The position numbers were made by a program. 4,557 nt of DNA. Source: a virus (lineage: Duplodnaviria; Heunggongvirae; Uroviricota; Caudoviricetes). The stretch lies in the IMG/VR virus record IMGVR_UViG_2609459832_000009, positions 1-4,557 of that record; one strand, 5' to 3'. Shown piece by piece: positions 1-3,000 of the stretch; position 1 is the first letter of the stretch, and every line of letters starts with the position of its first letter.

Positions 1-3000
1 CGACCATCAGCTGCTTTGTAGTGGATCAAGTACTGGTTTTCGCCATCCGCATACTGCGCGCGGGCTTTAACCTCACCCCATTCATCACTGATACGCATCT
101 CCACCAGTTGAGACAACTCAAACTTAAACGGAGAAGCATCAGCACCAATTACAATCGGTTTGTTTTCTGTTTTTTCCATCATCGTCTCCTGATATCGAAG
201 CCCGTCGCCGCACCGGGCACTGATCAACATTTGAGTATTCGCGGCGACAGAAAGAATTTATTTTATTGAGTAGCCACAAACACAGAATTTCATGCTTACC
301 GGACGCTGGCGCATCCTTCATTTTTCAGCAAAATATTCTGCTCTTACGGGCGATCAATTCTGTGTGCACCGCCGAACGCCATCAATAAGCTGGCAGACCT
401 GAGAAGCCGTATCGAAAAGCTGACGCGCCTTATCCAGGCTGACGCACCCCACCAATAAAAAAGGCACCAGTATCGCTACCAGTGCCCATTTCGCCGCCGC
501 TCGCGGCATTCTGTGTGTCCAGTGCTTCCGCTTCATCTCGCTATCCACCAATCAATCCGGATAAGCTCAATACTCGCCAGGCGGTGGAAATGAAAATAGC
601 AACCAACATTGCTGAAAATGAAAGGCCAACAACCACACAAAGAATCCGCGCCAGTTTTATAATGCTATCTGACATGCTTTACTCCTTAATCCCCCTCTCA
701 CGATTTCACCGCAATGACCAATTCTGCCAGCCCATACAGTACCGGATACACAGTGATACCGACCGCCAGCCACTTAATGGCAAAGGTTACCGCCCACAAC
801 AATTCAACGCTCATCCTTTCAGATAAATCATCGTGTAAGCGGCCATCGCTGTACAAAGAACCCATGCAACTGGCGTCAGGATATGGCGAACACCCCGGCA
901 TATCGCAATGATCTTCGCGGCATCATCCGCTCCCTGCGGAGTGGTTTCTGCTTTTATCATCAGACCATCTCCAAATTTATCTTTCGTCGTGTTAGGCTTT
1001 ACTGGCATGAATGATCCCCATGCGCATTCACAAAATGAATCCATAAACACAAAACCCCGGACTGTTCCCGCAGCCGGGGTTTTGCTTAACTTATCGTTTC
1101 AGCTGGAAGTGAGGTCCGTCTTTCAGGCTGGTCCAGTCGCCGCCCCATTCGATGGCGGTTCCCAGTTCTTCGCCAGCCTGCTTAAATGCCCGTGCGATTT
1201 TCTCGTACAGAGGCCAGTCCCAAGACACTTGGCTGCCAATATAAGCCACAACATCAACCGCATCACCGGTCAGGTGACGGCTGTTCATGGTCTGGCTTTT
1301 CCCTTCCGCAACCAGCTGTTTCTGGCGTTCTTTCGTGCGCAGTCCTTCCGTAATACCGAAATCCACCTCCGTCAGCTCCAGCGCACGGCGAACGACAGCA
1401 ACCAGCTGTGGTTTGACGCCCTCCAGATTTTTCTCGCTCCGACGACTGAATCTGAATTTACCCGACATGTTCACTTCCGTTATGAAAGAATTTTTGAAAC
1501 GTTCCCGCGTGCGCGAACCACCAGCACGCAGAACAGCAGATTCGCCATCACCATCAGCCAGCTACCCGAAAGTGCAATGCCACAGAGAAAGGCAAGCGGT
1601 GTCAGCGCATATACCGTCATCAACCCCCAGGCCAGCCATGACATCAGCGGTTTATGTCTGGAATCGCGACGGCGGTAAAAAAAAAGCGTCAGCACGATGA
1701 CCGTACATAACGCCACGTTCAGTAATTCAGAAAGGTTATCTGGCATTGCCACCACCTCCATTCCTCAGGCGGGAGAACAAACCGGATATCAGCGCTGCAA
1801 TATCCTGCTGGTGGATGAATGCCAGAATCTTTACCGACATCACTGACATCAGCACCGCACACAGTGCATCCGCCGATGTACCGTCATAACCTGTTTTTGA
1901 TGCAACCCAGGCTGACAACGCACGTGCACCCAGCACGCCAACAATAAATGACACCAGAAAATGTGCCGCCACTCGCCAGCCTGAAAACGCCTGCGGCATC
2001 GTGGCCACGAACAACGCCCCGGCGAATGCACCAAACACAATCCCGAAATCCGTTCCGGTAAACAGCCCGAATACCGTCGCCCCGCCGAGCGCCGCAGCCG
2101 TACCGGAACCGGATAAGGGTTCAGACATAAATACCTCTCAAAATCAGCGTGATGGGAGTTTATACCAAGTTATAAAATTATGTGATTAAGTATCTTTTTG
2201 TGGTCCCATACAATAATCAGATGAACTACATGTGCTTAAAGAAATTAGTTCGTTAGTAGAGAAAGCCTTTTTAAACTCGGAATCACTCCACACATTTTCC
2301 TTATAATAGACCCTTATACTTTCACCAGTAGCATAATAATACTTAGCCATTTCCATCATGGCATCGAAACCTTGTTTATGATTCCCAAAAATATCCACCT
2401 TACAAATACTGTGAACAGGAAGATTCAAATTATCACGCTTTATTCCAATGCAAAAAAACTGACTTTCCTGCCCCCCAGATGTGTAAACACCATATGAAAA
2501 ATTATTAATCTGGACATTGCTCAAATACTTATCATAATCACTCATCACTGCATGACTTGTACCAGATAACAATGAAAGAGCAATTAAGGAATATTTTATT
2601 TTCCGATTCATAAAACCTCTTATATACGCTAATAAGTTAATCAACAAATCAAATAATAAACACATCATTTCAATAGCATCATTTTATTATTTCTTTTAAC
2701 ACACCTCTTGCATCATAAAATTCGGGTTCATAATAAGTGGCTCTTTTATTTAAACCATCTCTTCTGACTCCCTTCAGAGCAAAACAGGCACTGATCAGAC
2801 TTCCAAATGCATTGATTCTTTCTCTAACTGACACAGTTGGTACAACTAATTGAGGTATAACACCTGGATTTACAAATGTGGATCCAGGAACATACCTGGC
2901 ATTGGTGGTTCCGGGTCCATCAGATACTTGACTGTTGAATCTGTCATAAGTCAACTCCACAGCCTCAACAATATTCTCACTAGGGATATGTTCAACTGCG

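Follow-up and report, generated by a model that had tools for sequence, protein, structure and literature searches.

The 4,557-bp window analyzed here (positions 1 to 4,557 of the IMG/VR virus record IMGVR_UViG_2609459832_000009, Caudoviricetes) carries on its minus strand, at 1091-1468, what is very probably the endolysin gene of a phiP27-like Escherichia coli prophage, encoding a holin-dependent L-alanyl-D-glutamate (L-Ala-D-Glu) peptidase that would release both the phage and an adjacent toxin. Homology, conservation of the catalytic residues, fold, gene order and the missing signal sequence form the direct basis of this reading, and from them we infer the bond specificity, the zinc dependence, the dependence on holins, the Q-dependent transcription and the release of the toxin by lysis. 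The original prediction, made from the DNA without database searches, had proposed that the lysis enzyme is an M15 zinc endopeptidase rather than a lysozyme or transglycosylase, and the family, structure and fold matches described below bear this out.

The hidden Markov model search that had been named as a check placed the protein in Pfam PF13539 (Peptidase_M15_4) at 47.2 bits, above the gathering cutoff of 25 (E = 3.3e-12), and it matches the PHROG family phrog_465, annotated 'endolysin', at E = 2.6e-74. Full-length sequence matches in the PDB are EndoRB49 (23ri, E = 4e-46, 65% identity), LysECD7 (8q2g, E = 5e-45, 65%), ChiX (5opz, E = 1.7e-40, 54%) and EndoT5 (2mxz, E = 1e-25, 39-44% depending on the alignment), with Ply500 and LysB4 as more remote matches. 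No glycosidase or transglycosylase domain was found for the protein in Pfam, NCBIfam, PHROGs or the PDB matches. On these matches, which go well past what chance would give, the endolysin is classified as a Peptidase_M15_4 (MEROPS M15C) zinc peptidase of the LAS type, and not as a lysozyme or transglycosylase.

The motifs that had suggested a metallopeptidase are exactly as described, in an open reading frame (ORF) of 125 codons: the H65-x6-D72 pattern lies in SRHLTGDAVD (residues 63-72) and H120 in GPHF (residues 118-121). We aligned nine sequences (the window protein, phiP27, a Krischvirus phage, LysECD7, ChiX, RB16, T5, Pseudomonas phage AAT-1 and Salmonella phage SE131) spanning 34-95% identity, and the proposed ligands His65, Asp72 and His120 are invariant down to 34% identity, as are Arg44, Ser58, Trp112 and Asp117; 31 closer homologues and seven alleles from E. 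coli and phages likewise keep every one of these residues. In ChiX, Zn2+ is bound by His68, Asp75 and His123, the D120A variant has no activity in vitro or in vivo, and a part in substrate binding is proposed for Arg47 (PMC5778951); in the alignment these residues (His68, Asp75, His123, Asp120 and Arg47) correspond to His65, Asp72, His120, Asp117 and Arg44 of the window protein, respectively. The equivalent positions of LysPH (H77, D84, H159, D156, R41 and S55) are essential by mutagenesis (bioRxiv 10.64898/2026.04.21.719881), and a study of the T5 and RB49 enzymes describes a tryptophan as critical in each (Trp114 in EndoT5, Trp109 in EndoRB49; PMC10487532). The predicted roles are thus Zn ligation by His65, Asp72 and His120, catalysis by Asp117, and substrate contacts by Arg44, Ser58 and Trp112. 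Cleavage between L-Ala and D-Glu has been demonstrated biochemically for ChiX (PMC5778951) and is reported for EndoT5, EndoRB43 and EndoRB49; from homologues that share 42-65% identity we infer that the window enzyme cuts the L-Ala-D-iGlu bond in a zinc-dependent manner.

An AlphaFold2 model built with 31 homologues as input (mean predicted local distance difference test score 87.6, predicted template modeling score 0.83) has the LAS alpha/beta fold when searched with Foldseek, with ChiX as the top match (template modeling (TM) score 0.88, root-mean-square deviation 2.0), followed by LysECD7 (0.80), EndoT5 (0.74) and LysB4 (0.71). The maximum hydropathy over 19 residues is 0.94, with no segment above 1.6, and the protein has no transmembrane segment, signal peptide or signal-anchor-release (SAR) domain. 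Because it lacks any hydrophobic segment, and given its place in the gene order, the endolysin would be of the canonical type that is cytoplasmic and depends on holins.

The gene itself runs from an ATG at 1468 to a stop codon at 1091-1093, for a product of 14.1 kDa with a pI of 9.3. The RefSeq protein WP_089560305.1, labeled "M15 family metallopeptidase", has identical coordinates and differs only by I77V. We rejected a GTG start at 1474, which an ORF listing gives for a product of 127 residues: it falls within the Shine-Dalgarno-like sequence GGAAG, and the ATG is the start in RefSeq as well as in the phiP27 record. This GGAAG, read from the sequence at 1474-1478 (minus strand), stands 5 nt 5' of the endolysin ATG and 1 nt past the stop codon (TAA, 1480-1482) of the preceding holin gene (holin 2), a placement that suggests translational coupling of holin 2 and the endolysin. 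The minus strand carries every credible gene of the window. Two plus-strand ORFs antisense to the endolysin (908-1678, 256 codons, and 1287-1700, 137 codons) have no Pfam or PHROG match at E <= 0.1 and were set aside as shadow ORFs; the former spans the entire endolysin gene and part of holin 2. A scan of the whole window against Rfam returned no structured-RNA family at gathering score.

The enzyme had also been likened to the T5-type L-Ala-D-Glu peptidases, and here the family holds while the strict subtype does not. EndoT5 (phage T5 Lys, 2mxz and 8p3a, 137 residues) has the M15C family, the fold and the catalytic residues in common with the window enzyme; in the alignment, however, it has some 12 extra residues inserted between the conserved tryptophan and the D-x-x-H motif. 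This insert, described as a mobile loop binding regulatory Ca2+ (PMC10487532), is missing from the window endolysin. The label 'strictly T5-type' was rejected on this ground and on identity, which is much higher to RB49, ECD7 and ChiX than to EndoT5. Trp112 and Asp117 of the window protein have just four residues (TSLK) between them, a spacing found in EndoRB49, LysECD7 and ChiX too, and because TSLK stands where EndoT5 has the Ca2+-loop insert, we place the enzyme in the compact RB49/ChiX-type subgroup of M15C, for which Ca2+ independence is expected.

Within this subgroup, EndoRB49 and LysECD7 are globular, Ca2+-independent L-alanoyl-D-glutamate peptidases of Krischvirus phages, and they resemble the window endolysin in having a single domain of about 125-130 residues, the same Zn-ligand, aspartate and tryptophan positions, and no Ca2+ loop. 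They differ in having a short C-terminal extension (LysECD7 and RB49-type proteins) and in coming from virulent T4-like phages, in which the endolysin is not located beside holins or a toxin. ChiX from Serratia marcescens, the closest structure, shares the H/D/H ligands, the aspartate and the arginine, the absence of a signal peptide and delivery by a holin; its context is different, however, as it is encoded in the chromosomal chiWXYZ operon together with spanins of the Rz/Rz1 type and a lambda-S-type holin, and serves the non-lytic secretion of chitinase, whereas the partners of the window endolysin are holins of the Phage_holin_8 and Phage_holin_3_7 families in a prophage late operon. The R transglycosylase of lambda and the R21-like SAR endolysins that most Shiga toxin (Stx) phages carry have an equal role and occupy the same slot downstream of Q and the toxin genes, but they have another fold and chemistry and cut the glycan strand, whereas the class to which the window enzyme belongs acts on the stem peptide. 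Sec exports the SAR endolysins, whose partners are pinholins, and a survey of Stx phages found such endolysins in 269 of 279, with a signal-less metallopeptidase endolysin in only two Stx2e 'cluster C' phages (PMC8136144), so that the contrast originally drawn with lambda and most Stx phages is well founded.

Two holin genes precede the endolysin in the direction of transcription. Holin 1 (1736-2128, minus strand, 130 residues) belongs to Phage_holin_8 (Pfam E = 4.3e-22; phrog_198, holin), and holin 2 (1480-1746, minus strand) to Phage_holin_3_7 (Pfam E = 7.9e-20; phrog_217, holin), the latter having 88 residues from the RefSeq start, or 93 if started at 1761, and three hydrophobic segments; both assignments agree with the hydropathy of the proteins. 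The two genes overlap by 11 nt, and 11 nt also separate the holin 2 stop from the endolysin start. The tandem holins come from different Pfam families, and the pair is retained even where the endolysin is exchanged.

Upstream of the holins are the genes of an AB5 toxin, on the same strand. The binding subunit (2186-2611, EcPltB or ArtB-like) matches PDB 4z9c_B at E = 2e-74 and the NCBIfam model AB5_pltB_like, and the pertussis-like ADP-ribosyltransferase subunit (2679-3404, EcPltA or ArtA) matches 4z9c_A at E = 3e-161 and Pfam Pertussis_S1, differing from 4Z9C_A at three of 241 residues (99% identity). On these matches the adjacent toxin is the E. coli pertussis-like toxin EcPlt (ArtAB), which has been reviewed (PMC11610972), and not a Shiga toxin; we therefore rejected the 'Stx phage' label. 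Of the idea that a toxin had been joined to a different lysis module, the non-glycosidase nature of the module stands, but the cargo is EcPlt rather than Stx, and the module is not new, being already present in phiP27.

The G+C content of the toxin block is 29-41%, against 50-57% for the lysis genes, as one would expect of a moron, and the layout is that of a lambdoid late operon in which the toxin moron lies between the tR' position and the lysis genes. Further upstream lies a Q-like late antiterminator gene of the DUF1133 family (3792-4334, minus strand, RefSeq coordinates; Pfam DUF1133 E = 1.8e-101, Phage_antitermQ E = 1.2e-6; phrog_753). In the interval between this gene and the toxin genes, a terminator scan found a strong intrinsic-terminator-like hairpin (3685-3714, minus strand) with a 12-pair stem and a T run, which is in the position of lambda tR' and is presumed to be the target of Q antitermination.

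On the other side of the endolysin, 7 nt past its stop codon, begins a second terminator-like element, read from the sequence at 1051-1083: a perfect 10-bp inverted repeat (AAAACCCCGG / CCGGGGTTTT) followed by TTTTGTGTTTAT on the minus strand, of which the terminator scan reported only a shorter plus-strand version. This hairpin might curb read-through into the small ORFs downstream when Q is absent. Among these ORFs is a candidate outer-membrane spanin subunit (o-spanin) at 354-506 (minus strand), a small lipoprotein with the lipobox LLVGC, a mature part of 30 residues and three cysteines, which matches phrog_7528 at E = 2.9e-35 and is not in the RefSeq table. Its homologue is the o-spanin ORF of phiP27 (20706-20861 of that record, 5354-5509 of the phiP27 stretch examined), part of a spanin pair listed as the shortest two-component spanin known, its periplasmic residues adding up to 62 (Kongari et al. 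2018, supplementary file 5). A 44-residue ORF with a single transmembrane domain (541-675, minus strand; phrog_4906, unknown function; hydropathy) overlaps with its end the start of the longest reading of the lipoprotein ORF, which ends at 551. It is a possible but doubtful inner-membrane (i-spanin) partner, as its periplasmic tail would be just 13-15 residues or so. This and the other small transmembrane ORFs on the minus strand (698-796 and 811-1008) have PHROG matches of unknown function or no match. The interval of about 570 bp between the endolysin and the candidate o-spanin (520-1090) is unrelated to the corresponding segment of phiP27, which carries the catalogued i-spanin.

Together these features suggest how the cassette would work. 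Upon prophage induction, the Q-like antiterminator would allow late transcription to proceed past the terminator at 3685-3714, on a transcript that would span the EcPlt genes, the two holin genes and the endolysin gene, such that their products would be made together. The endolysin, having no secretion signal, would build up in folded form in the cytoplasm until the holins permeabilize the inner membrane and give it access to the murein. Zn2+ held by His65, Asp72 and His120 would then activate a water molecule, with Asp117 as the general base and presumably with no control by a Ca2+-binding regulatory loop like that of EndoT5, and stem peptides would be cut between L-Ala and D-Glu, removing the peptide cross-links from the glycan strands. 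The cell would burst, and phage particles and the periplasmic AB5 toxin would be freed.

The genomic setting is of the phiP27 kind. At 99.9% identity (three mismatches), the window matches E. coli UTAK-18 and four other genomes, and in UTAK-18 and the near-identical loci it is part of a phiP27-like prophage located between ydfJ and rspB, with P27-family terminase, portal, capsid and contractile-tail genes downstream. In UTAK-18 this prophage has a head-to-tail deletion (14140-15047 of the stretch examined) that fuses the capsid and DNA-circularization genes and leaves the cassette intact; in strain JNE23-001 the prophage is apparently complete. In the Stx2e-converting phage phiP27 itself (NC_003356), the L30 endolysin (NP_543082.1) is of equal length and identical at 119 of 125 residues (95%), the six substitutions leaving the catalytic positions untouched, and the genes L28-L30 (holin, holin, endolysin) have the same order as in the window at 84-88% nucleotide identity. 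The late operon of phiP27, like that of the window, has the module downstream of a moron that encodes an AB5 toxin, the cargo being Stx2e in phiP27 and EcPlt in the window. The same holin-holin-M15 module is also carried by an Stx2k phage.

The enzyme and its module are widely distributed. A search of 50,697 phage records found homologues of the endolysin in 1352, and the protein clusters that it matches at E <= 1e-5 number more than 7900. Among 5426 complete E. coli genomes, 365 have the holin-holin(-M15) module and 44 have EcPlt; the EcPlt loci have the M15 gene behind the holins in 37 cases and another endolysin there in six, and one (ETEC4075) is truncated after holin 1. The one locus inspected of the six with another endolysin, that of CFIAFB20180540 (NZ_CM143725.1, 1210-4919 of the stretch examined), has EcPlt and the same two holins, followed by a GH108 glycosidase endolysin and then by LT-IIa toxin genes. 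This sister prophage has a double-toxin late operon. The LT-IIb phage SerU (SerU-LTIIb) likewise has the same two holins with an endolysin of 181 residues. Across these loci the holin pair stays and the endolysin behind it is swapped as a cassette, nothing beyond the usual mosaicism of lambdoid phages.

The slot upstream of the holins is variable too. DH5alpha (NZ_CP026085.1, 3997-6841 of the stretch examined) has the order Q(DUF1133)-holin-holin-M15 with no toxin and with tRNA genes in the moron slot; going by the strain genotype, we take this prophage to be phi80. Enterotoxigenic E. coli (ETEC) H10407 (NC_017633.1, 1302373-1307371) has the same order, again with no toxin, and a DNA methyltransferase in the slot. 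DETEC-S589 (NZ_CP116071.1, 2568-5371 of the stretch examined) has a diverged EcPlt-like toxin pair upstream of the holin-holin-M15 module, with 77.5% nucleotide identity in the alignment over window positions 1103-2556, a Q of another family, and downstream an annotated Rz1-type lipoprotein; the module can therefore pair with lambda-type spanins. Finally, P15-25 (O139:H1, porcine edema disease; NZ_CP080233.1, 18562-39735 of the stretch examined) has the block Q-EcPlt-holin-holin-M15 in a remnant at the Rac site (ttcA/intR) that is devoid of virion genes, and a further 18 genomes, nearly all porcine ETEC or Shiga toxin-producing E. coli, share the P15-25 breakpoint at window position 1070, just past the endolysin.

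Because the block stays intact in prophages that have lost virion genes, for example in P15-25, whose breakpoint recurs in the 18 further genomes, it might be that Q, EcPlt, the holins and the M15 peptidase have been domesticated into a system devoted to releasing the toxin, an evolutionary stage on the way from a phage lysis cassette to a type 10 secretion system (T10SS); we consider this unlikely. Quite unlikely, too, is the related proposal that the holin-holin-M15 cassette acts mainly as a T10SS-like release device comparable to ChiW/ChiX, through which EcPlt would escape by local murein remodeling, with or without full lysis, and for which the release of virions would be secondary or lost. 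ChiX is needed for the non-lytic secretion of chitinase and is both 54% identical to the endolysin and its top structural match, the toxin genes directly adjoin the holin genes, and EcPlt is related to the typhoid toxin PltA/PltB, which according to PMC13284979 is exported via a T10SS. The retention of the block in P15-25, the shared left boundary in the mostly porcine genomes and the intact cassette beside the UTAK-18 deletion are further points in favor of this proposal. Homology to ChiX apart, however, the window does not contain the stand-alone holin/endopeptidase/spanin operon outside a functional phage that characterizes a T10SS; it runs on into packaging genes of the phiP27 type, and because the operon sits in a prophage that is apparently complete in JNE23-001, plain lysis is favored over ChiX-like secretion. 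Moreover, the module occurs with no toxin at all in many prophages, including those of H10407 and DH5alpha, and a late operon controlled by Q predicts expression only upon induction, which is lethal anyway. The remnant inspected is a single one, P15-25. ChiX-like secretion is nonetheless the most interesting alternative; a domesticated system would, if true, serve a relative of the typhoid toxin family.

Several points weigh against a holin-dependent L-Ala-D-Glu endolysin that releases phage and toxin. The description of the Pfam family reads 'D-alanyl-D-alanine carboxypeptidase', and NCBIfam has no specific model for the enzyme (a match to MepK, at 15.9 bits against a threshold of 185, is far too low to be informative); because the Pfam name differs and such a model is absent, the bond specificity rests on homology at 42-65% identity. 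Our literature search found no biochemistry or genetics on the window endolysin or on phiP27 L30. Either of the two holins may be the effector and the other a regulator or antiholin, and a scan for a late promoter with the sigma-70 consensus gave eight sites, against 8.8 in shuffled sequence, so that none is claimed. No convincing i-spanin was found in the window by PHROGs or hydropathy.

The Pfam description also lends itself to another enzymatic reading, in which the protein is a D-Ala-D-Ala carboxypeptidase or dipeptidase of the VanY/VanXY kind that trims stem peptides, and VanXY, VanY and LdcB are indeed found by Foldseek, but solely as remote matches of the LAS fold (TM scores 0.45-0.56, 17-21% identity). 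The close characterized homologues, at 42-65% identity, are all L-Ala-D-Glu endopeptidases, the gene falls into a PHROG endolysin family, and its position behind two holins in a phage late operon suits an endolysin, which makes a carboxypeptidase highly improbable. There is equally little chance that the gene is no longer functional, a leftover in a prophage undergoing decay, as the partial deletion in the best-matching genome UTAK-18 and the loss of holin 2 and the endolysin in ETEC4075 might suggest, given an intact ORF with complete catalytic residues and one conservative difference from the RefSeq protein, a confident AlphaFold2 model, and an allele that 37 of the 44 EcPlt loci have kept.

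The identification of the window gene as an endolysin is correct but ordinary, and adds nothing new in biological terms. The phiP27 record, PMC8136144 and the structures of ChiX, EndoT5, EndoRB49 and LysECD7 already describe the enzyme class, its mechanism and the module, and the pairing of a toxin with a phiP27-type module is a known pattern. What the analysis settles is how to annotate the lysis enzyme by which EcPlt is most likely freed from E. coli, and this has little practical value. The phiP27-type module recurs beside AB5 toxins, in full with Stx2e, Stx2k and EcPlt, and with LT-II as the same holins accompanied by another endolysin, a recurrence that can help to type toxin-converting prophages and to predict the release of toxin upon prophage induction.

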